Shown here: one piece after another, positions 14,787 through 58,973 of the stretch | Position numbering within the stretch: position 1 is the first letter of the stretch | How the letters are laid out: the number at the start of each line of letters is the position of its first letter | NCBI GenBank assembly: GCA_041659685.1 | Contig: JBAZXV010000008.1 | Coordinates: 3,332 to 67,331, forward strand | Direction: 5' to 3' | Source of the DNA: Parcubacteria group bacterium | GTDB taxonomy: Bacteria; Patescibacteriota; Minisyncoccia; Moranbacterales; UBA11712 | Length of the DNA: 64,000 bases | Translations under genes and position numbers: made by a program | The notes under the pieces: generated by a model | Database searches by the model: none | What the model was told of the DNA's origin: nothing | What the model saw: the letters and a program-made list of their open reading frames with translations, nothing else

Positions 14787-14814
14787 ATTTTACACTGTCA
14801 TTTTTCGCTTTGAA
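14787..14814 (-). promoter_or_regulatory. candidate sigma70-like promoter for the giant gene (TTCAAA-N16-TAAAAT on the minus strand)
   Basis: The minus strand reads ttcaaagcgaaaaatgacagtgtaaaat in the 52-nt spacer between the HTH-gene stop (14816) and the first in-frame ATG (14763). Confidence 0.3.
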
Positions 14815-14815
14815 C

Positions 14816-15238
14816 TTATTTCGGAACCACTGTCACTGATCCCACTTCCTCCGGATTATCCGCGTGAATTATGAGGTTATTATTTGCATCTTTCTCAACT
14901 TTAATATCGCTTTCCGAATTGATTCCCCGATAATTCCAGGAAATTATCACAAGTATGAAAATTGCAACCAGCACAACAGCCCATTTGAGATTGAGAACGG
15001 CTTTTTTTTGCTCAAAGGCCGGGATATTTGCGTTTAGTGATTCCTGCCGGCGATAGTTCGCCTCCGCTACCCGATCGGTGTATTTTTCAACCGTTTCTTT
15101 CGTCGTAAACCACTTGCCGTCTTTTTTAAATCCCTCCAATTTTCCTTTTCTCACCAAAAGACTCAGATAGTCCGCGCTATAAGGAGAATTTTTACTGGCT
15201 TCTTGCAGTGTAATTAGATTTTTTTCTTCAGCTCCCAT
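14816..15238 (-). CDS. membrane-tethered DNA-binding protein: N-terminal excisionase/MerR-like HTH, one TM helix, short extracytoplasmic tail
   Basis: LITLQEASKNSPYSADYLSLLVRKGKLEGFKKDGKWFTTKETVEKY resembles an HTH_17-type motif, followed by a hydrophobic WAVVLVAIFILVIISW segment. The gene is co-oriented with and 52 nt upstream of the giant gene. Confidence 0.55.
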   Translation of the reverse strand: MGAEEKNLITLQEASKNSPYSADYLSLLVRKGKLEGFKKDGKWFTTKETVEKYTDRVAEANYRRQESLNANIPAFEQKKAVLNLKWAVVLVAIFILVIISWNYRGINSESDIKVEKDANNNLIIHADNPEEVGSVTVVPK

Positions 15239-15258
15239 TTTTTTGATATTTAAGGTAA

Positions 15259-15300
15259 CTCGATATCATATCCGATACTGTATCGACACCAGAATTATAG
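15259..15300 (-). promoter_or_regulatory. candidate promoter/operator of the HTH gene: extended -10 (TGcTATAAT) followed by two adjacent palindromes (CGATACAGTATCG, GATATGATATC)
   Basis: The minus strand reads gtgcTATAATtctggtgtCGATACAGTATCGGATATGATATCgag immediately upstream of the ATG at 15238. Confidence 0.35.
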
Positions 15301-15303
15301 CAC

Positions 15304-15332
15304 AAAAAAAGGCCTGCCAACAGCCTTTTTTA
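15304..15332. terminator. rho-independent terminator hairpin, A-tract/stem/T-tract and symmetric
   Basis: The sequence aaaaaaaGGCcTGccaaCAGCCtttttt lies downstream of the RAYT gene on the minus strand. Confidence 0.55.
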
Positions 15333-15348
15333 ACCAAGTTATCCACAC

Positions 15349-15376
15349 CCCACTTAGACACTCAGTGTCTAAGTGG
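15349..15376. repeat. REP-like palindrome type 1 (ccaCTTAGAcactcagtgTCTAAGtgg); overlaps the RAYT stop codon
   Basis: A perfect 27-nt palindrome. Its reverse complement recurs at 15817-15841. Confidence 0.7.
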
Positions 15377-16019
15377 ATTCATCTGATTTTTCCATAAATT
15401 CAACATCCCCTTTTCGCCTCAAGATGGCCTCAAGAGACATTTTTGAAAACTCTTCATATTCCTTGAAATTTGGAAATTGATCGCAAATTATACTTTTCTC
15501 GCAAAAGCCGGTTTTTCGCCACTTTTCGTATTCGGACCAGCTACTCAGGAAAATCCCACCAACATCTTCCATTTTATGCACTTTATAGTTCAAATTGACA
15601 TAAGTTGAGGCGTAAAGCAACTGTTTATTGGTTTTAATATGGACTGACTGGAAAGGGCCCTGAAAAAGCACTCCATTCCTCTTATGCCTGTGATTGAAAT
15701 ATTTCGTATACCCGTTTCCGATTTTGTGCATAAATTTTTCAATTCCTTTATCTGAAACTTGCTCAAGAATCAGATGATAATGGTTCGGATTGAGACAAAA
15801 ACACACTATATTTACCCACTTAGACACTGAGTGTCTAAGTGACTTATTCTTGTGAAAAGAGCTGACATAGATACCGCCATATGATTCAACCCGATTGAAT
15901 TCAGACATACTCTGCAAAAATCGGGAAATGTCTTTTTTATCGAGAAAAACAGGTCTTTTCTCAACACCTCGGTTATAGACATGATAGTACTCTCCGTTTA
16001 CTAATTGCACTTTTCTCAT
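15369..16019 (-). CDS. HUH (Y1) tyrosine transposase, IS200/RAYT-like
   Basis: 216 aa. GEYYHVYNRG N-terminus, HUH motif NPNHYHLIL and a Tyr region GNGYTKYFNHRH. A paralog lies at 22688-23347. Confidence 0.7.
   Translation of the reverse strand: MRKVQLVNGEYYHVYNRGVEKRPVFLDKKDISRFLQSMSEFNRVESYGGIYVSSFHKNKSLRHSVSKWVNIVCFCLNPNHYHLILEQVSDKGIEKFMHKIGNGYTKYFNHRHKRNGVLFQGPFQSVHIKTNKQLLYASTYVNLNYKVHKMEDVGGIFLSSWSEYEKWRKTGFCEKSIICDQFPNFKEYEEFSKMSLEAILRRKGDVEFMEKSDEST
15817..15841. repeat. REP-like palindrome type 1, inverted copy, lying inside the RAYT coding sequence (encodes SLRHSVSKW)
   Basis: cacttagacactGagtgtctaagtg is the exact reverse complement of the 15349 copy. The paralog at 22688 lacks this segment. 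Confidence 0.65.
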
Positions 16020-16029
16020 AGAGTCTTTG

Positions 16030-16995
16030 CTACTTAGAAGCTCCGCTTCTAAGTGAAATTTTGTAGCGCCTCAAAAACCACCACCAGATTCCGGCAAGTG
16101 CCAGGACTGCGAGAAGCTCTTTCCACGGAACCAAAAAAATGAATTTTTGAAATTTCATATTTCGTCCCTCCCCGTCCTTGATGTTTCCAGATATTTTATA
16201 GAGCCCGAGAAAGTCCTTCCTCTGAATATCCTCTGAAAAAACACGACTGGTTGTCGGAAGAATTGTCCGGTCTTTTATTTCCAGTCTGCCAATTTCCCGC
16301 CCAAAAATGTTTTTCACTGACACTTCCCCCTCCGGCTTAAAATGAGAATTTCCTTCGTTTGCAATTTCAATTTCCAAATTTGATTTATCGGTAAAAGAAA
16401 TTCTGGGCAATTCTACTTTTTTCAGAATGCCTTTTTTCACCGCGTTTCCGCCGGCTTGCACCAGAAACAGCACTCCCGCCCGGCCAGACACGCAAACACT
16501 TGATTTATCCGTCCAAACTACATTTTTATCTTCTTCAATATTGCATCGGGTCCGAAAGAAAATTACCCCGTAATGTCCGCCGAGATTAGCATCCTCTGGC
16601 GCCCTGATCTTATAATCAACAACCTTATTTTTTCCCTTTTCTAAGCTAAAATTATCCTCGTCAACCGAAAGCCATTTGCTCATGAGATAAGGCCTTAATT
16701 CATCGTTCGCAATGTCCCTGCCGCCGGTAAAAATATATTTTCCGGCATCGTCCATAAAAAAATCGGAAAACTCGACCGCAATATCAAGATTTTGATCAGA
16801 ATTGTTTCCGACATAAATTTTTCCTGTTTTTTCTTCCCCTGGATTGATTTCGAGATCAAAATAGAGCGGCGACACCGTGAGTGAAACCGGCCCTTCGGCA
16901 TGAGAAAAAGAAACTGGAAAAAAGAGACTGACCAAAACAATCAGCCCCAACGCCGCTATTCTTCCTGCCTGCCATATTTTTCTCATCCGCCTCAT
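16030..16995 (-). CDS. secreted protein with C-terminal TM anchor plus basic tail; DUF916/DUF3324-like (CscA-like) architecture
   Basis: 321 aa. Signal peptide (IAALGLIVLVSLFFPVSFSHA), GGHYGVIFF motif and a C-terminal LAVLALAGIWWWFLRRYK segment. Paralog of the 17000-17995 gene. Confidence 0.5.
   Translation of the reverse strand: MRRMRKIWQAGRIAALGLIVLVSLFFPVSFSHAEGPVSLTVSPLYFDLEINPGEEKTGKIYVGNNSDQNLDIAVEFSDFFMDDAGKYIFTGGRDIANDELRPYLMSKWLSVDEDNFSLEKGKNKVVDYKIRAPEDANLGGHYGVIFFRTRCNIEEDKNVVWTDKSSVCVSGRAGVLFLVQAGGNAVKKGILKKVELPRISFTDKSNLEIEIANEGNSHFKPEGEVSVKNIFGREIGRLEIKDRTILPTTSRVFSEDIQRKDFLGLYKISGNIKDGEGRNMKFQKFIFLVPWKELLAVLALAGIWWWFLRRYKISLRSGASK
16031..16056. repeat. REP-like palindrome type 2 (tACTTAGAAGCtccgCTTCTAAGTg); supplies the last codons and stop of the DUF916-like gene
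   Basis: The minus strand reads ...SLRSGASK* from this palindrome. Its inverted copy is at 58065-58089. Confidence 0.65.
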
Positions 16996-21233: not shown

Positions 21234-22710
21234 TTATCGGCTAAAGAGCAAAAATAAAGAAACAATAATCGCAAACGCCATAAATCCCACTGCCAGCCAT
21301 CCGAAAAATTTTACCCAAAAAGGATGCGTTTCCTTCCCCATCACGCGCTTGTCATTTCCAATTATCATTATGACAGCAAGAAGCGGCAAGGCAATAATTC
21401 CGTTTAAATAAGCTGAATAGTAGAGAGCTTTAATGGGATTAATATGGAGGAAATTGAGTCCCAACCCCACCAAAATCGAAAGAGCGATAACCATATAAAA
21501 ATCCTTTTGCCCGGGAAAACTTAAGTTCAAGCCCTTCGTGCCATTTCATCACTTCGGAAAGCGCATAAGCGCCGGATCCGGCAAGAATGGGAATAGCCAG
21601 AAGGCCGGTCCCGATGATGCCGATAGCGAAAAGAAGGTAGGAGGCTTCGCCCGCAAGAGGCCGGAGAGCCAGGGCCGCCTGATCGGCTGAATCAATGGTT
21701 GTTATTCCGTTCTTGAAAAGTACCTGGGCGGTAGTAAGGACGATAAAAAAGAAAACCACATTGGCAAGAATCATTCCCGTTCCCACATCGGTCCGCATAT
21801 GCGAAATCCGGCAGTGCATGGAGGATCTTCTTTCCTGTTCGCTCAAAAGCTTATTTTCTTCCACTTCTTCCGACGTCTGCCAGAAAAAAAGATAGGGCGT
21901 GACAGTCGTTCCGAAAACGGCAATCATGGCAAAAATATAATTTTCGCTGAATCTGATATTTGGAATGAAAGCGTTCTCAAAAACTTCCCGCCAGTCAGGA
22001 TGAATCAAAAATCCGGTGACAATATAGGCGAAAACGGCAATCGTAAGCCACTTCAGAAATTTGACATAGGTCCGATAGCGAAAGAATATTTCAAGAAAAA
22101 CGATAAGAAGAGCGAAAAAAAGAGATGCCGCGCTGATATTGGCGCCCGTCACCAAATTCAGCGACGCCGCCATCGCCCCGAGGTCCGCCCCGATATTCAC
22201 GACATTGGCAACAATGAGAAGAAGCACGATAGCCCCCATGGTTTTCTTGTTGAATCTTCCGCCCAGAACCTTGGTCAAACCTTTATTTGTCACAATTCCT
22301 ATCCGGGCGCAAACTTCCTGAACCGCAAGCATGACCGGAAGAAGCCAAACCGCCATCCAAAGAATCGAAAAACCGAACATGGCGCCGACCGCCGAATAAG
22401 TTCCGATGCCGGAGGGGTCATCATCGGAAGCTCCCGTAATGAGCCCGGGGCCCAGAGCTTTTACATACAACGCAAATTTTTTTCTGGGGTTTCGGACCAG
22501 ATTCTTTACTTTAACAACGTCCGCCTCGGTTATTCGCAATGTCCCGTCGACCAGTTTTACCGCCTCTACCTCGCCCCACACAATCATTTTTTTTGCAATC
22601 ACAAGAGGAATTCCGGCTTCGCGGCGAAATTCGGAAACTGTATGCAGCTTGCCTTTCTTGACCCTAGAGTTCGACTCTAGGGTTGCGTTATTCGAGTAAA
22701 TATTTTTCAT
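21234..22710 (-). pseudogene. mntH: Nramp-family divalent metal transporter (MntH) with an apparent +1 frameshift near 21440-21530; N-terminal HTH-like extension
   Basis: ORF 21439-22710 carries GASDDDPSGIGTYSAVGAMFGFSILW and ends ...VMKWHEGLELKFSRAKGF. ORF 21234-21530 in the +1 frame continues with the Nramp C-terminal TMs (FYMVIALSILVGLGL...FGWLAVGFMAFAIIV). The 92-nt overlap contains runs tttt/ccc/ggg/aaaa/ttttt. Confidence 0.6.
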
Positions 22711-23405
22711 CCTCTTTTTTATTTTTCATGTAAACAGCGTTTTCAAAAATAAATTTTTTAAAATCAGTATAATCTTTGAACTGATTCATTATGACTTTCT
22801 TGTTGCAAAGCCCCTTTTTTCTTTTTCCAAGATAATCCGGAAAACTTGAGTACTTCCATTCTTTCTCTTTATATCCATGAATATAATGATTCAAATTCAC
22901 GTAAGCCGCAAGATAAAGCAATTTAGAATTTGATTTTATATGAACTCTCTTAAATTTCCCCTGAAACAGAGCGCCCGACCTGCTATTTCTTGTATTAAAA
23001 TAATTAGTATGACTCGTTCCGATTTTGTGCATTAATTTTTCTATTCCATTATTGACTAATTGCTTTACGATCAAATGATAATGATTTGGATTTAGACAAT
23101 AACATATAAACTCGACTAGTTTTTTTCGTTTTTTTTTCAATAATGGAAAATCAGAAAGCTCAGCCTCAGGATTGTTGTCTTTATAATCCCTCCAGGCGAT
23201 CATGAGTCCGTCATCTTGATTATTCAGCAGGTTCATCGACAGCTTAAACCTTTCAAAATCCCGCTTGTCCTGAAAAATTTTTCTCTTGTCCACTCCTCTG
23301 TTATACAGGTGGTAATATTCACCGTTTGTAAATTCAATTTTTCTCATTTTATTTTACCCTAGTACCCTAGAGTCTAGAGTCGAACTCTAGGGTTGCGTTA
23401 TTCGA
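22662..23405 (-). mobile_element. IS200-like (TnpA-only) element: Y1 transposase gene bracketed by a direct repeat TCGAATAACGCAACCCTAGAG-loop-CTCTAG(GG) containing hairpins
   Basis: Left copy is at 22662-22695 (ccctagagTTCGActctaggg + ttgcgttattcga). Right copy is at 23365-23405 (ctagagTCGAActctaggg + ttgcgttattcga). The repeat supplies TCGAATAA stop codons for both glmS (VTVE*) and the transposase (YLLE*). Confidence 0.6.
22688..23347 (-). CDS. HUH (Y1) tyrosine transposase, IS200/RAYT-like paralog
   Basis: 219 aa. GEYYHLYNRG, NPNHYHLIV and HTNYFNTRN motifs. Its last 7 codons overlap the first 7 codons of the mntH ORF as called. Confidence 0.7.
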   Translation of the reverse strand: MRKIEFTNGEYYHLYNRGVDKRKIFQDKRDFERFKLSMNLLNNQDDGLMIAWRDYKDNNPEAELSDFPLLKKKRKKLVEFICYCLNPNHYHLIVKQLVNNGIEKLMHKIGTSHTNYFNTRNSRSGALFQGKFKRVHIKSNSKLLYLAAYVNLNHYIHGYKEKEWKYSSFPDYLGKRKKGLCNKKVIMNQFKDYTDFKKFIFENAVYMKNKKEDEKYLLE

Positions 23406-47125: not shown

Positions 47126-47827
47126 CTATTCGTGTTTAATAATCACGAATTCCCCCCTGATCTTATCACTGTTTTCTGCATAATATTCCAAAATTTCACT
47201 GACACTTCCTCTTTTGACCTCTTCAAACATCTTCGTCAGTTCCCGACCCACAATCAGTTTAGCATTTGGATTGAATTTGGAAAGCAGTTCAATATTTTTA
47301 AGAAACCGGTGCGGAGATTCGAAATATATGGACGGGTATTTGCTTTCTGCTACTCCGCGAAAAAATGTTTCTCTCCCTTTTTTGTGCGGAGGAAAACCGA
47401 GGAAAGTGAACTTGCTCATGTTGATTCCCGCCACACTCGCCAGAGTTGTCACCGCCGAAGCCCCGGGAATCGGTATTATAGACATCTGATGTCCCCAACT
47501 ATTTTGGACATCGGATGTCCAAATACGCTCGATGAGCTCGTTTCCCGGATCCGAGATTCCCGGCGTTCCCGCGTCCGAAACCAGCGCCAGATTTTTTCCG
47601 TTTTCAAGATGTTCGATGATTTTTTCCACTCTGGAAATCTTCGAATGATGGTGGTATGACAGAAGAGGTTTTTGGATTTCATACCGGTCCAAAAGTTTTT
47701 TCGTCACCCGCGTGTCTTCGCACAAAATCAAATCAGCTTCTTTCAGGATGCGCAAAGCCCGAAGAGTGATGTCCTCTAAGTTTCCGATAGGAGTGGCGAC
47801 AATATGCAGTTTGCCTTTTTCGCTCAT
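47126..47827 (-). CDS. rsmI: 16S rRNA (cytidine1402-2'-O)-methyltransferase
   Basis: LHIVATPIGNLEDITLRALRILKEADLILCEDTR. Confidence 0.9.
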   Translation of the reverse strand: MSEKGKLHIVATPIGNLEDITLRALRILKEADLILCEDTRVTKKLLDRYEIQKPLLSYHHHSKISRVEKIIEHLENGKNLALVSDAGTPGISDPGNELIERIWTSDVQNSWGHQMSIIPIPGASAVTTLASVAGINMSKFTFLGFPPHKKGRETFFRGVAESKYPSIYFESPHRFLKNIELLSKFNPNAKLIVGRELTKMFEEVKRGSVSEILEYYAENSDKIRGEFVIIKHE

Positions 47828-49638: not shown

Positions 49639-50913
49639 TCAAATAGCTAATGTTTTTTTCAAAAATTTATCGTCTTTTATCGGCCCTATCACCGCCAAAT
49701 TGAGTCCGCCGTCAATAAAAATATTCTTAGCCACTCTTATAATATCATCTGCCGAAACTTTATCAACCCTCGCAAGAATTTCTTCCGGCCTTTCAATTTT
49801 CTTTTTCATCAGTTCCTGGCCGGCTAAAAATCCGGCAATGTCGTCTGAAGACTCGAGCGAAAGAGCCGTTTTCCCCCGAAAATTATCTTTGGCTTTCTGA
49901 AGTTCCTTCGGGCTGACTTTTTCGTCTCGGATTTTTCTTATTTCATTCATTATTGTCCTGACTGTCATTTCAACTTTGGATTGATCAGTGTCCACACCCG
50001 CCCGGACAGCCAGATATCCGCTGCCGGTATAACTTTCGTATCCGGAGTTGATATAATAAGCCAGACCCAGCCGTTCGCGGACGGAAAGGAACAGCCGGCT
50101 GCTCATCGTTCCGCCGAGAATGTTGGAAAGAATAGAGAGGGCGAACCTGTCCGGATGAAACATATTATAAGCCCGAACGCCGATCACCAGATGGACCTGA
50201 TCAGTCTTCTTCGCCTTTATTTTTATCTGCGGCTTCGATTGTTTTTCGATGGTTTTCGGCTTTTCCCCGGATTTCTTTCCCCTCATCCCCAAAAATTTCT
50301 TTTCAATTTCGCGAATCGTGCGTTTTTCGTCAATATTTCCGGCAACGCACACGACTGTGTTCGGCGCGGTATAATTTTCCCGGAGATATCTCAAAAAATC
50401 GGCGCGTCTGAAACGCCTGATATTTTCTTTCGTTCCGATAGTATCCCATCCGGCCGGCTGGTCGCCGTACATAAGCCCTTCAAAAACTTCCATTGCCTGG
50501 ATCGTCGGAGTGTCTTCGTACATATTGATCTCCTGAAGTATTACCCCTCTCTCTTTCTCTATCTCTTTCTCATCAATCTTTGAATTGAGATATATGTCAG
50601 AAATAACATCGAGCGCCAAATCAAAATGCTTCGCGTCAACTTTCGCAAAATAAGCCGTCTGTTCCTTTCCTGTGAAAGCGTTATATTCGCCGCCGACTGC
50701 ATCGAGAGCTCCTGAAATGTCTTCTGTCCTCGGCCGCTTCTTCGTCCCCTTGAAAAACATGTGCTCAAGAAAATGCGAAATGCCGTTCATTTCTTTGGTC
50801 TCGCATATGGATCCCACGCCGGCAGTGATAATCACTGTCACCGTGTTCGTGTCCTTCATCGGCGCCGTCACCACCCGTAATCCATTCTTCAAGATTGTTT
50901 TTTTGAAATTCAT
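49639..50913 (-). CDS. M16-family zinc peptidase (pitrilysin-like)
   Basis: Inverted zinc motif HFLEHM (HxxEH) near the N-terminus. Confidence 0.85.
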   Translation of the reverse strand: MNFKKTILKNGLRVVTAPMKDTNTVTVIITAGVGSICETKEMNGISHFLEHMFFKGTKKRPRTEDISGALDAVGGEYNAFTGKEQTAYFAKVDAKHFDLALDVISDIYLNSKIDEKEIEKERGVILQEINMYEDTPTIQAMEVFEGLMYGDQPAGWDTIGTKENIRRFRRADFLRYLRENYTAPNTVVCVAGNIDEKRTIREIEKKFLGMRGKKSGEKPKTIEKQSKPQIKIKAKKTDQVHLVIGVRAYNMFHPDRFALSILSNILGGTMSSRLFLSVRERLGLAYYINSGYESYTGSGYLAVRAGVDTDQSKVEMTVRTIMNEIRKIRDEKVSPKELQKAKDNFRGKTALSLESSDDIAGFLAGQELMKKKIERPEEILARVDKVSADDIIRVAKNIFIDGGLNLAVIGPIKDDKFLKKTLAI

Positions 50914-50917
50914 CTAA

Positions 50918-50957
50918 GGTTCAACCTTAGCAGCTGCTAAGGTTGAACCTTAGAAAC
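50918..50957. repeat. 40-bp perfect palindrome CTAAGGTTCAACCTTAG-CAGCTG-CTAAGGTTGAACCTTAG
   Basis: An exact inverted repeat. Each 17-mer arm is itself hairpin-forming. Lies between the M16 start and the pepA stop. Confidence 0.8.
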
Positions 50958-56660: not shown

Positions 56661-58055
56661 CTATTTCCCGGAATTCACTTTTCTTATTAATGATTTTTCC
56701 GGGTAATAATCTTTCAGTCTGATGAAATAGACATTTTTGCTTCCGCCGTGGGCAGATTTCACTTTTTCGCCATCCTCTTTTCTTATCTCTTCCACCCTAT
56801 CGGAAATAACTCCGGACGGAGTGACGATCTCGACTTTCTCTTTCTCGCTGAGAACGTTGTGAATCTTTACCTGCTTAAACCCCGCGAAGCAAGCGCGGCT
56901 TTCCCCCGAGTCAAGACTCGCCCTGGTATTTTCTTTATTATTTATCCCCTTCCGCAGAAAACTGCGACCACAAGCTCGCCTTATGAATGCTTCCTTCTCT
57001 GCTTCGAGGAATTTCGCTCCCCCGAAGGAGCGGACGGATATCCCGTACGCAAAATTGGGGGGCTTCATAACTTCCCCGACAAACTGCCAACGATTTTTTT
57101 CATGTGAAAGGTCAAAATTATTTTCCCACTTGTCTTTTCCGAATAAAAACCCGGTCGTGTATCCGCGATTATTAAGTTTCAGAAGCTCTCCCTTGGCGCT
57201 CTTTACCGTTTTCTTCAGCTCCTTTAAACCCTTCTTGTTCTTTATCGCATCCAACACCATCCGATAGTTTCTTACGACCGTTGAAACATAATAGACGCTC
57301 TTTGTTCGTCCCTCAATTTTGAATGAATCTATCCCGGCTTTTGCCAGATCATCCAAATGCTCAATGAGACAAAGGTCTTTGGAATTGAATATATATGTCC
57401 CCTGCTCGTCTTCTTGTATTTCAATAATGTCCTTTTCTTTTTTCGTTACTCTGTACGGCCAGCGGCACGGCTGGACGCAATCCCCGAGATTCGCGCTCCG
57501 CCCGCGCATCCAGCTCGACAGAAGACACCGCCCGGAAAGACTCATACACATCGCCCCGTGAACAAAGTATTCAAGCTCGATCCTGGGACACGCTTTCCTT
57601 ATCTTCTTTATTTCTTCGAGCGTTACTTCCCTTGCCAGAATTATCCGTTTTACGCCCTGCTTTTCCCAAAATCTTACCGCTTCGGAATTAGTCGTGTTGG
57701 CCTGGGTGGAAAGGTGGATCCTTATTTTCGGGGAGATTTTTTTGGCCAAACTGACAATTCCCGGATCACTGATAATAAGCGCGTCCGGTTTGATTTTCGC
57801 GATGAACTTCAAATGCTTTTCGAGAATCCCGAGATGACGCTCGTGGGCAAAAATATTCAAAGTAAAATATATTTTCTTCTTCCGGCTGCGCGCTATCCCT
57901 GCCGCTTTTTCAAGTTTCTTCTCCGTAAAATCATTTATTCTTGCGCGTAAAGAAAAATTCGGATGGCCGACATAGGCGGCATCCGCGCCGAAGTGATAGG
58001 CATATTCTATTTTTTCGAGGCTCCCGCCGGGAGCAACGAGTTCAAGTTTTCGCAT
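56661..58055 (-). CDS. peptidase U32 family protein
   Basis: LELVAPGGSLEKIEYAYHFGADAAYVG...EYFVHGAMCMSLSGRCLLSSW. Confidence 0.85.
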   Translation of the reverse strand: MRKLELVAPGGSLEKIEYAYHFGADAAYVGHPNFSLRARINDFTEKKLEKAAGIARSRKKKIYFTLNIFAHERHLGILEKHLKFIAKIKPDALIISDPGIVSLAKKISPKIRIHLSTQANTTNSEAVRFWEKQGVKRIILAREVTLEEIKKIRKACPRIELEYFVHGAMCMSLSGRCLLSSWMRGRSANLGDCVQPCRWPYRVTKKEKDIIEIQEDEQGTYIFNSKDLCLIEHLDDLAKAGIDSFKIEGRTKSVYYVSTVVRNYRMVLDAIKNKKGLKELKKTVKSAKGELLKLNNRGYTTGFLFGKDKWENNFDLSHEKNRWQFVGEVMKPPNFAYGISVRSFGGAKFLEAEKEAFIRRACGRSFLRKGINNKENTRASLDSGESRACFAGFKQVKIHNVLSEKEKVEIVTPSGVISDRVEEIRKEDGEKVKSAHGGSKNVYFIRLKDYYPEKSLIRKVNSGK

Positions 58056-58064
58056 CAGTTGATA

Positions 58065-58089
58065 AAAATAATCCCACTTAGAAGCGGAG
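58065..58089. repeat. solo REP-like palindrome type 2 (CACTTAGAAGCggagCTTCTAAGTG), inverted relative to 16031
   Basis: The same stems as the 16031 copy with a reverse-complemented loop. Intergenic between the U32 gene and the 58155 gene. Confidence 0.65.
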
Positions 58090-58154
58090 CTTCTAAGTGA
58101 ATGCGGATAACTTTATTCACGTAACAAATATTGAAGAAATTTTTGATTATTTTT

Positions 58155-58973
58155 TTATTTTTCTCCCCTGATTCTCTTGTTGTTTTCGAGCACAGCTTTC
58201 ACAAATTTCGGGTCATAGCCGGCTTTCTCGCTGGCTTTCGCAATCGCGTTCACATCTTTCGGCAGGCACTTGCCGGCAAATCCCCGTCTGTCCGGATATA
58301 CAGCGGAATACATTCTCCCTACCCGTTTGTCGAGAAGCCACAGTTCTCTGAGTTCCTTATACTCAACTCCGAAAGCCTCGGCCATACCGAAAAATTCATT
58401 GCAAAAAGTCACTTTGGTCGCGATGAAAGCGTTTTCCATATATTTCACAAGTTCAGCTGTCGTGGAATCGGTGATAAAAAACTTCGCGTCCGCTCCCATA
58501 ACTGCGATGAAAAAATCCAAAATAGCCGAGGCGCTTCTTTTGTCTCCTCCAACAATTTGAAAATTATGAAATTTCATGTCGGTCGGATGGGGATATTTCC
58601 AAAAAGGGACGAAATAGGGAACCCCGGCGCCTTCTCCCATATATTCAGGAGAGAAGCAGATTTTTTTGCCGGTTTTCTCGACCAACATTTCCGTTGTGCG
58701 GGGCGGAATGGTGCTTTTCACAAGAATGAGCGGAGTTTCAAGCCACCCCAAAGTTTCTTCGATGATGGAAAGGTCGCAAGAGCCATCCTCCCCCATCGGG
58801 GTCGGAACTGAGACCACTCCCAGGTCGCACTGGTTTATTTCTTCCTGCGAGGCCGAACCCTCGACATGCGGGTCGAAATAAATCGTTTCAAAATTGTCCT
58901 TGAAAAAATTATAGACTCCTTTTCCGACGTAGCCATAACCGATCACGGCCACTTTTTTCTTTGCTTTTTCCAT
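58155..58973 (-). CDS. UDP-glucose/GDP-mannose dehydrogenase family protein, short (lacks the usual C-terminal domain)
   Basis: VAVIGYGYVGKG NAD-binding motif and catalytic-Cys motif GFAGKCLPKD. Only 272 aa. Confidence 0.65.
   Translation of the reverse strand: MEKAKKKVAVIGYGYVGKGVYNFFKDNFETIYFDPHVEGSASQEEINQCDLGVVSVPTPMGEDGSCDLSIIEETLGWLETPLILVKSTIPPRTTEMLVEKTGKKICFSPEYMGEGAGVPYFVPFWKYPHPTDMKFHNFQIVGGDKRSASAILDFFIAVMGADAKFFITDSTTAELVKYMENAFIATKVTFCNEFFGMAEAFGVEYKELRELWLLDKRVGRMYSAVYPDRRGFAGKCLPKDVNAIAKASEKAGYDPKFVKAVLENNKRIRGEK

Follow-up and report, generated by a model that had tools for sequence, protein, structure and literature searches.

Introduction

The closest described relatives of the arrangement reported here are Y1/HUH transposases associated with repetitive extragenic palindromic (REP) sequences, known as TnpA-REP or REP-associated tyrosine transposases (RAYT). 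In-frame REPs within the tnpA-REP gene were called 'a unique feature of subclass 2.4' by Quentin, Siguier, Chandler and Fichant in 2018 (PMC6006769). Members of this subclass come mainly from Cyanobacteria and Bacteroidetes, have GT[AG]G-footed or 'double foot' REPs and the motifs NH[IFV]H, WQ and YIxNNP, and carry inserts, variable in length and sequence, between the HuH motif and the tyrosine (Y), which were read as insertions (PMC6006769). Subclass 2.1 combines the motifs NH[YF]H, FQ and Y[IV]HLNP with a length of >200 aa that includes a C-terminal extension (Table 1 of PMC6006769); subclass 2.1/TIRYT is reported to be without REP-like hairpins, to have terminal inverted repeats in some cases, and to possess a helix-turn-helix (HTH)-like C-terminal domain (PMC6006769). 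REPs inside other genes have also been catalogued (Di Nocera et al. 2013, PMC3733652), and REPs downstream of genes affect mRNA decay (PMC3733652). Here we analyze a Y1/HUH gene, its palindromes and its relatives, starting from a 64,000-nucleotide stretch of a Parcubacteria group bacterium genome (assembly GCA_041659685.1, contig JBAZXV010000008.1, positions 3,332 to 67,331), referred to below as the window.

This gene and its relatives probably represent a compact REPtron-like unit of a class-2 Y1/HUH clade of Patescibacteria, in which one hairpin is present at four fixed sites, two flanking the gene (H1 and H4) and two inside it (H2 and H3). An arrangement of this kind is already known. What is new is its presence in a Patescibacteria clade with subclass 2.1-like motifs, perfect non-GTAG palindromes and two fixed in-gene sites outside the HuH-Y interval, together with the fusion of a promoter to H1 and with data indicating that the copies within the gene are inherited and stay matched with the flanking ones.

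A hairpin at four fixed sites of a Y1/HUH gene family

We scanned 80 loci of Patescibacteria genomes, along with 64 metagenomic loci that are more distant, for perfect palindromes; the site counts refer to 72 related Patescibacteria genes and to perfect stems of at least 8 bp. Hairpins recur just upstream of the start codon (H1, 54/72 genes), within the gene 14-22 residues before the HuH motif (H2, 40/72), within the gene 13 residues after the Tyr motif, following the catalytic-tyrosine helix (H3, 35/72), and at or just after the stop codon (H4, 53/72), where most begin 0-6 nt past the stop. All four sites are present together in 17 loci, L007 and L066 among them, and 52 of the 66 loci with flanking hairpins have a further one inside the gene. 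The reading frame is constant at both in-gene sites (39/39 for H2 and 35/35 for H3, 74/74 in total); H1 and H4 display no frame preference.

The peptide encoded by H2 of the window, SLRHSVSKW, is aligned among 17 relatives with PLRHRVSKL, PLRSEASKL, ELGHGVSKL, SLGGEASKL, QLGHSVSKL and QLGGEASKL. The common pattern, L-[RG]-x-x-x'-S-K, is that of a translated palindrome, with the pairs CTT/AAG, AGA/TCT, GGA/TCC, CAC/GTG and AGC/GCT. Most orthologs have a segment homologous to SLRHSVSKW at this point of the alignment, and the position of H2 is maintained across 31-58% identity. Orthologs without H2 have instead a lysine-rich loop of similar length (11-14 residues vs 12). Because the in-gene hairpins keep a single frame, the loop is of similar length where the hairpin is absent, and the corresponding loop is longer in the hairpin-free second Y1 paralog of the window (at 22688), the in-gene sites are taken as an inherited feature of the family and not a recent insertion.

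This conclusion departs from the sequence-only reading of the window, which had interpreted the hairpin inside the transposase coding sequence as a recruited REP; homologous segments at the same position and in the same frame in most orthologs speak against recruitment. That reading had also proposed that the segment would be ancestral if it were found in orthologs without nearby REPs. A homologous segment is indeed present in orthologs, but these orthologs also have REPs nearby. Its observation that the paralog at 22688 lacks the segment is correct insofar as there is no palindrome inside that gene, but the loop at the H2 position is longer there, so a simple 9-residue insertion does not describe the difference.

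A more general version of the same idea is that REPs inserted recurrently and independently into permissive surface loops of their own and other genes and persist as neutral passengers, as has been proposed for subclass 2.4 (PMC6006769). Independent insertion would account for the family hairpins in other coding sequences (the tail of a WxLIP gene and a loop of rsmI at 47503-47523), for the absence of H2 or H3 from many orthologs, and for the location of the H2 peptide in a low-confidence loop of the AlphaFold model (residues 58-63), just before the strand that leads to the HuH motif. It would not readily produce 74 of 74 hairpins in one frame when other frames of the TTGG variants are stop-free, the same alignment position across the 31-58% identity range, or the lack of an insertion-sized gap, and at a density of dispersed copies of 0.06 per kb, repeated strikes on two 30-nt targets are improbable. 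We regard this explanation as unlikely.

Hairpins of one locus match each other

In the close family, the hairpins have the common stem base ACTT[AG]G..C[CT]AAGT, in its longest form (C)(C)ACTT[AG]G..C[CT]AAGT(G)(G), and a variable stem top (GGAAGC, GGAGGC, GGACAC, GGAAAC, AGACGT and others). Of the 182 within-locus pairs, 159 (87%) have the same 5-nt variable core, compared to 6.3% of the between-locus pairs; 0 of 2000 permutations reached this within-locus identity. Among the in-gene hairpins, 67 of 74 share the core with a flanking hairpin of their own locus. Relatives with 31-48% identity possess quite different hairpins (TCCTAAAAC, TGTAGCGGT, GACGGGAGC, GTGGACAC and TCCAGAAGC), and the in-gene copy still matches the flanks. 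In an ungapped alignment of 38 H2 sites, two-sided changes were detected in 10 of the 12 stem pairs, with 85 covariation cells vs 24 in shuffled alignments, none of which (0/500) was as high.

The codons inside H2 and H3 differ from those elsewhere in the same genes: AAG for Lys (93% vs 27%), CTT for Leu (60% vs 21%) and TCC for Ser (45% vs 6%). The residues encoded at the stem top are free to vary. The constraint on H2 and H3 thus acts on the nucleotide sequence, which sets the choice of codons. The class of the hairpin can switch over short evolutionary distances: the peptide encoded by H1 is LRSGASK in the window and LRHGVSK in a syntenic relative, and that encoded by H2 is LRHSVSK in the window, LRHRVSK in P0003 and LRSEASK in P0002.

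Paralogs in one genome have different hairpins. The second Y1 gene of the window is flanked by a hairpin of its own, CCCTAGAGT..ACTCTAGGG, located at 22661-22683 and ~23366-23394 with inverted loops, and paralogs likewise differ in the pairs L004/L015 and L068/L071. The gene is present in few copies per genome, as divergent paralogs that each have their own palindrome; near-identical copies of the unit were not seen within one genome, where paralogs are at most 80% identical, with the proviso that metagenome-assembled genomes (MAGs) can collapse repeats. Family hairpins are concentrated on the gene, with 3.05 per kb on the gene +/-100 nt vs 0.061 per kb elsewhere (~50-fold). The 522 kb of related flanks hold 32 family hairpins vs ~3 expected in whole-locus shuffles, which exceeds chance but is still a low copy number.

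These observations bear on the possibility that the hairpins are common host elements, palindromic operators or terminators, that are unrelated to the Y1 enzyme and resemble each other by chance. In many loci, H1 overlaps with a promoter, and a simple scan lists two window hairpins as terminator-like on the + strand, both of which would fit such a role. Host elements of this type would not be expected to lie within coding sequence, to track the individual Y1 gene such that paralogs in one genome differ, to be concentrated 50-fold on the gene, or to coincide at H1 and H4 with the boundaries of the unit (see below), and H4 is not followed by a T run on the gene's strand. The contrast between within-locus and between-locus pairs largely refutes this explanation, which we consider highly improbable. 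H4 was also evaluated on its own as a candidate terminator and was rejected, given that the T run is absent on the gene's strand.

Two loci, L014 and L045, contain chimeric hairpins ACTTGGAGGTTGAGCTTCCAAGT at H1 and H4, the arms of which belong to different classes (GGAGGT against GGAAGC). The same mismatch recurs at the two ends of a locus and in two genomes.

The locus in the window

The features of the window are compiled in Table 1. The motif CTTAGA-N(5-15)-TCTAAG occurs 4 times in the 64-kb window vs 0.01 occurrences expected from shuffles. H1, H2 and H4 are present and H3 has been lost. The TAG stop codon of the Y1 gene (15369-15371) is contained within H4, and 10 nt separate the end of H1 from the Y1 ATG. 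H2 is the reverse complement of H4; in practice, the two differ in the central base alone (G vs C), that is, in an inverted loop. The hairpins of the window are stable as folded single-stranded DNA (-8 to -12 kcal/mol, z -4 to -7).

Table 1 Coordinates of the Y1 unit and associated features in the window
Feature	Position	Strand	Description
Terminator-like G+C hairpin and T run	15303-15331	-	Directly outside H4; also at the empty sites L146 and L147 (blastn homology)
Hairpin H4, CCACTTAGACACTCAGTGTCTAAGTGG	15350-15376		Perfect palindrome of 13+1+13 nt (13-bp stem, 1-nt loop); 3' boundary of the unit; AGACAC class
Y1/HUH (TnpA-Y1, RAYT-like) gene	15369-16019	-	216 aa
Hairpin H2, CACTTAGACACTGAGTGTCTAAGTG	15817-15841		In the Y1 reading frame; AGACAC class; encodes SLRHSVSKW (residues 60-68)
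WxLIP/DUF916 gene	16030-16995	-	Pfam PF06030; last 7-8 codons and stop supplied by H1
Hairpin H1, ACTTAGAAGCTCCGCTTCTAAGT	16032-16054		5' boundary of the unit; stem top AGAAGC rather than AGACAC
Second Y1 paralog	22688-23347	-	219 aa; 44% identical to the first
Solo intergenic hairpin	58075-58099		Between genes 58155-58973 (-) and 56661-58055 (-); H1 (AGAAGC) class, inverted loop

The sequence-only reading had described most of this locus accurately. The Y1 gene flanked by palindromes with CTTAGA...TCTAAG stems, the perfect 27-nt copy overlapping its stop codon, the exact reverse complement encoding SLRHSVSKW and the palindrome encoding the end of the DUF916-like protein are all present, and the Pfam match and the 4er8 fold described below agree with a REPtron-like unit. 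Its solo inverted copy 42 kb away exists as well, although at 58075-58099 and not at 58065-58089, and its sequence is reverse-complementary to H1 and not to the AGACAC-class H2 and H4. Two related palindromes, at 47503-47523 in rsmI and at 50913-50954, had escaped it. Ongoing proliferation of REPs, which it had deduced, is not borne out: dispersed copies are rare, with one clear solo hairpin in 64 kb and 0.06 per kb in the 522 kb of flanks.

Unit boundaries and genomic contexts

Units that are 80-90% identical to each other are embedded in unrelated flanks in three pairs of loci (L019/L029, L002/L012 and L010/L031). Homology between the units starts at the 5' foot of H1 and ends within H4 in L019/L029 and L002/L012; in L010/L031, it ends just before H4, the class of which differs between the two loci. 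At the empty sites L146 and L147, there is no Y1 gene between the WxLIP gene and a 140-aa gene, and a tblastn search of these two sites for decayed Y1 remnants yielded none. The homology of L146 to the window stops at ATTTCAC, just before H1, and resumes at ~15347, just outside H4. By these sequence comparisons, the unit is delimited exactly by H1 and H4 and occurs in unrelated contexts. The terminator-like hairpin next to H4, shared with the empty sites, is host sequence outside the unit.

At the 5' boundary, H1 encodes the C-terminus of the WxLIP protein, SLRSGASK, and the stop codon. We compared the C-termini of 34 WxLIP orthologs and inspected the gene neighborhoods of P0122, P0125, P0123 and P0126. 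Orthologs followed by a Y1 gene have the tails SLRSGASK*, SLRHGVSK* or SLRRGASK*, whereas those without a downstream Y1 gene end in lysine-rich tails such as ISRKKR*. This comparison supports the view that the hairpin-encoded tail is a derived feature, in line with the REP-derived C-terminus that the sequence-only reading had postulated for the DUF916-like gene.

In two Giovannonibacteria genomes (L057 and L060), the Y1 unit is 92% identical and the syntenic flanks are 68-76% identical, which reflects either a stronger constraint on the unit than on its neighbors or a recent exchange.

Hairpin H1 and the promoter of the Y1 gene

The 3' foot of H1 (..CCAAGTG) leads straight into an extended -10 box, TGnTAnnnT, in 33 of 54 loci. 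The ATG in these loci lies 13-19 nt past H1, placing H1 at about -12 to -38. In L004, L009, L010, L020, L031, L075 and others, the TG of the extended -10 element (TGnTAtAAT) is supplied by the H1 foot CCAAGTG, and the box ends 6-9 nt before the ATG. This geometry suggests that the H1-linked Y1 transcripts are leaderless. In the window, the WxLIP gene has a strong promoter (17022-16994), and the Y1 gene is probably co-transcribed with it. The -10 box of the WxLIP promoter ends at 16994 and the annotated start is at ~16986, the same geometry as in the H1-linked Y1 promoters.

The position of H1 is informative with respect to a role of the hairpins in RNA, in which H4 would stabilize the 3' end of the transcript, H2 and H3 would serve as RNase III, pause or mRNA self-binding sites, and the likeness among copies would stem from one shared RNA-binding partner. 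H2, H3 and H4 are all on the mRNA, H4 lies close behind the stop codon in most loci, the stems are stable, and the effect of downstream REPs on mRNA decay offers a precedent (PMC3733652). Being mostly upstream of the -10 box, H1 is outside the gene's own mRNA and nonetheless matches H2-H4, a match that a role in RNA only does not explain. On the sense strand, G:T mismatches in imperfect stems are no more frequent than A:C mismatches, whereas G-U pairing would predict more of them; the counts are small, and many mismatches fall at the outermost pair. An Rfam scan of 14800-16400 with E up to 1 returned only two sub-threshold chance matches (mir-299 and an Enterococcus sRNA), and thus no family match to the region. 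The loops, finally, occur in either orientation, which alters the loop of an RNA. A function at the RNA level seems to us doubtful.

Whichever pair of sites is compared, the loops are either the same or reverse-complemented, the two cases being about equally frequent. The two orientations fit copying or conversion between palindromes, which can be aligned either way, and exchange in either orientation would account for the exact reverse complementarity of H2 and H4. As read from the sequence, the other loop orientation in H2 would create an in-frame TGA.

The Y1/HUH protein

The protein encoded in the window is 100% identical to an NCBI protein from a MAG of a Parcubacteria group bacterium. 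Its HuH motif is NHYH (residues 79-82), and the catalytic tyrosine is Y140 in YVNLNYKVH; the HuH motif and the Tyr of YVNLN are invariant across the alignment of 17 relatives. Within the family, the Tyr motif is Y-V-N-L-N followed by Y, F or N, such that the Asn of Y---NP is kept and the Pro is absent. The protein scores 23.1 bits against Pfam PF01797 (Y1_Tnp; cutoff 23). An AlphaFold model of the 216-aa protein (predicted local distance difference test score, pLDDT, 79.8) was searched with Foldseek, and the best fold in PDB was 4er8_A, the E. coli RAYT with REP (E 2.7e-6), followed by the IS608 and ISDra2 TnpA folds; the top matches 4er8, 2vjv, 2a6m and 2xm3 all had a probability of 1.00. Judging from the motifs and the modeled fold, the protein is predicted to belong to the Y1/HUH single-strand DNA endonuclease superfamily (TnpA-Y1), in which it is a class-2-like enzyme.

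The two closest relatives, 79-80% identical, are from Joint Genome Institute (JGI) sample 3300075153 and were compared by gene tables; a metagenome scan with the single protein retrieved only relatives of at most 55% identity. No relatives were found in phage records by blastn or in viral contigs by a protein-pattern scan, and there is accordingly no sign of a phage origin in these collections.

Comparison with described systems

The family resembles subclass 2.4 in combining a class-2 Y1/HUH gene, cognate flanking hairpins, in-frame in-gene copies, low copy number and divergent paralogs. It differs in the motifs, which are NH[YF]H, FQ and YVNLN[YF], in its Patescibacteria hosts, and in the hairpins, which are perfect palindromes with the ACTT[AG]G..C[CT]AAGT base and no GTAG. 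In addition, neither of its two in-gene sites falls between HuH and Y, and both have a fixed position and frame. In two distant relatives with 31% identity (L139 and L140), an in-gene cognate hairpin, CTCCAGAAGCAAGGCTTCTGGAG, is located between the HuH and Tyr motifs, as in subclass 2.4. The in-frame REPs that the sequence-only reading had called unusual are already published, both in tnpA-REP and in other genes (PMC6006769, PMC3733652), but the clade in which they occur here is a different one.

By its motifs, the family would be nearest to subclass TnpA-Y1 2.1 and not to the canonical REP-associated subclasses, an assignment drawn from the published motifs and not from a formal classification. 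It differs from subclass 2.1 in that hairpins are the rule, the Pro of Y---NP is missing and an HTH domain was not found in the protein by Pfam.

E. coli RAYT/TnpA-REP (4ER8; PMC3333891, PMC3479197) is the best structural match and is similar in its HUH and Tyr chemistry, its flanking hairpins and its single or low gene copy number. In contrast to the perfect palindromes of the window family, the REPs of E. coli are imperfect, carry a GTAG tag and number in the hundreds (PMC3333891, PMC3479197), and the sequence identity of the two enzymes is ~13%, with the NCBIfam RAYT model not matching here. E. coli rayT contains no in-gene palindrome >10 nt, which is a weak control given that E. coli REPs are imperfect.

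With IS200/IS605 elements (IS608 and ISDra2 TnpA), the window unit shares the Y1 fold, subterminal hairpins at both ends and varied genomic contexts. Unlike these elements, no identical multicopy elements were seen per genome, the Tyr motif is not Y---Q, the unit ends at the feet of the hairpins rather than beyond them, there are extra hairpins in the gene, and no tnpB is found next to the Y1 gene among the open reading frames of the window. The unit therefore does not qualify as an IS200/IS605 insertion sequence.

The short palindromes in frame in host genes, namely, the WxLIP tail and the rsmI loop, are comparable to intragenic REPs and Rickettsia palindromic elements (RPEs), which are GTAG- or CGTC-tagged, or longer RPEs in Proteobacteria, unlike the palindromes of the window family (PMC3733652).

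Origin and maintenance of the matched hairpins

By analogy with E. coli TnpA-REP and IS608 TnpA, we hypothesize that the encoded enzyme binds and cleaves the hairpins as its cognate sites. The four copies could be kept alike either by the enzyme cutting and rejoining DNA at the hairpin feet or by gene conversion via the palindromic arms; either exchange process would work in both orientations and so would yield flipped loops. Occasional copies might land elsewhere, as in the solo hairpin at 58075, the WxLIP tail and the rsmI loop. The in-gene copies would occupy two surface loops that tolerate any peptide, and H1, which abuts the extended -10 box in most orthologs, could double as an operator for self-regulation.

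The arrangement of cognate palindromes on both sides of the gene, as in a REPtron, is found in the window and in the family. Several observations weigh against the REPtron-like reading with one hairpin at four sites. The protein scores 26 bits (the paralog, 29.8) against the NCBIfam RAYT equivalog model NF047646, far below the cutoff of 80, and its sequence identity to the solved enzymes is just 10-14%. The canonical GT[AG]G foot of REPs is absent, with GTGG found only at the 3' end, where it is base-paired. Dispersed copies are few (one clear solo and two related palindromes in the 64 kb of the window), so that REP mobilization is weakly evidenced. H2, H3 or both have been lost from many intact genes, and the in-gene copies are hence dispensable for the protein. 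In the window itself, H3 is missing, H1 belongs to a different class than H2 and H4, and an H1-linked -10 box is lacking (AAGTAGCAAAGACTCTATG). The rows of the covariation analysis were pre-selected for perfect stems, which inflates the percentage of paired positions and leaves the contrast between within-locus and between-locus pairs unaffected, and both statistics ignore the relatedness of the sequences. Binding, cleavage and exchange, moreover, are all postulated from homology. With these points taken into account, the REPtron-like unit with a hairpin at four fixed sites is still the reading that we favor as probable.

A stronger proposal is that the in-gene hairpins are functional cis-elements of a self-referential system, in which the enzyme's own gene would be among its substrates, exchange of hairpins between the reading frame and the flanks would rewrite two surface loops of the enzyme in step with its DNA target, and the embedded copies would act as protected masters that reseed flanking and dispersed hairpins. 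If so, the target sequence and part of the protein would co-evolve by construction. We put this proposal forward as a long shot.

The family bears on the means by which REP-associated Y1 enzymes remain matched to their palindromes and on the role of domesticated transposases. Four copies of the target lie within 700 bp, two of these are translated, and all change in concert in hundreds of Patescibacteria genomes; the family constitutes a very regular natural experiment in which specificity co-evolution and hairpin exchange are directly testable. Two published views are affected: the feature considered exclusive to subclass 2.4 is also widespread in another, very different clade, and hairpins that lie in frame need not be sporadic insertions but can be inherited and maintained. 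In unrelated genes (WxLIP and RsmI), the hairpins also give rise to lineage-specific peptide tails and to inserts in loops, with consequences for the annotation of the small genomes of candidate phyla.

Other palindromes and repeats in the window

A family-type palindrome, ATTTGGACATCCGATGTCCAAAT, lies in frame in rsmI (47126-47827, - strand), the gene of a 16S rRNA methyltransferase, and encodes IWTSDVQN; it is followed by a degenerate second copy, TTGGGGACATCAGATGTC. The loop of RsmI between GISDPG and IPIPG, which is 13-50 residues long in orthologs and commonly 16-17, has 22 residues here, suggesting that it is a hot spot at which palindromes are inserted. At 50913-50954, there is a perfect 42-nt double palindrome, TCTAAGGTTCAACCTTAG-CAGCTG-CTAAGGTTGAACCTTAGA, in which a small hairpin is present in two inverted copies, similar to a REPIN doublet; it begins at the start codon of a gene on the - strand (49639-50913).

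Around the second Y1 paralog, a 13-nt sequence, TCGAATAACGCAA, adjoins each of the two hairpins (22660-22697 and 23366-23405) and holds the glmS stop codon on one side and the stop codon of the paralog on the other. A 21-nt direct repeat, CTCTAGGGTTGCGTTATTCGA, occurs twice beside this gene. On the contig of the closest relative, an Nramp gene directly follows glmS with a gap of 42 nt, which represents an empty site for the second paralog.

An inverted repeat, TCGATATCATATCCGATACTGTATCGA, is located at 15260-15286, upstream of the 140-aa gene (14816-15238, - strand), and is conserved at the corresponding position in both L146 and L147. This repeat may serve the 140-aa gene as an operator and is unrelated to the Y1 unit.

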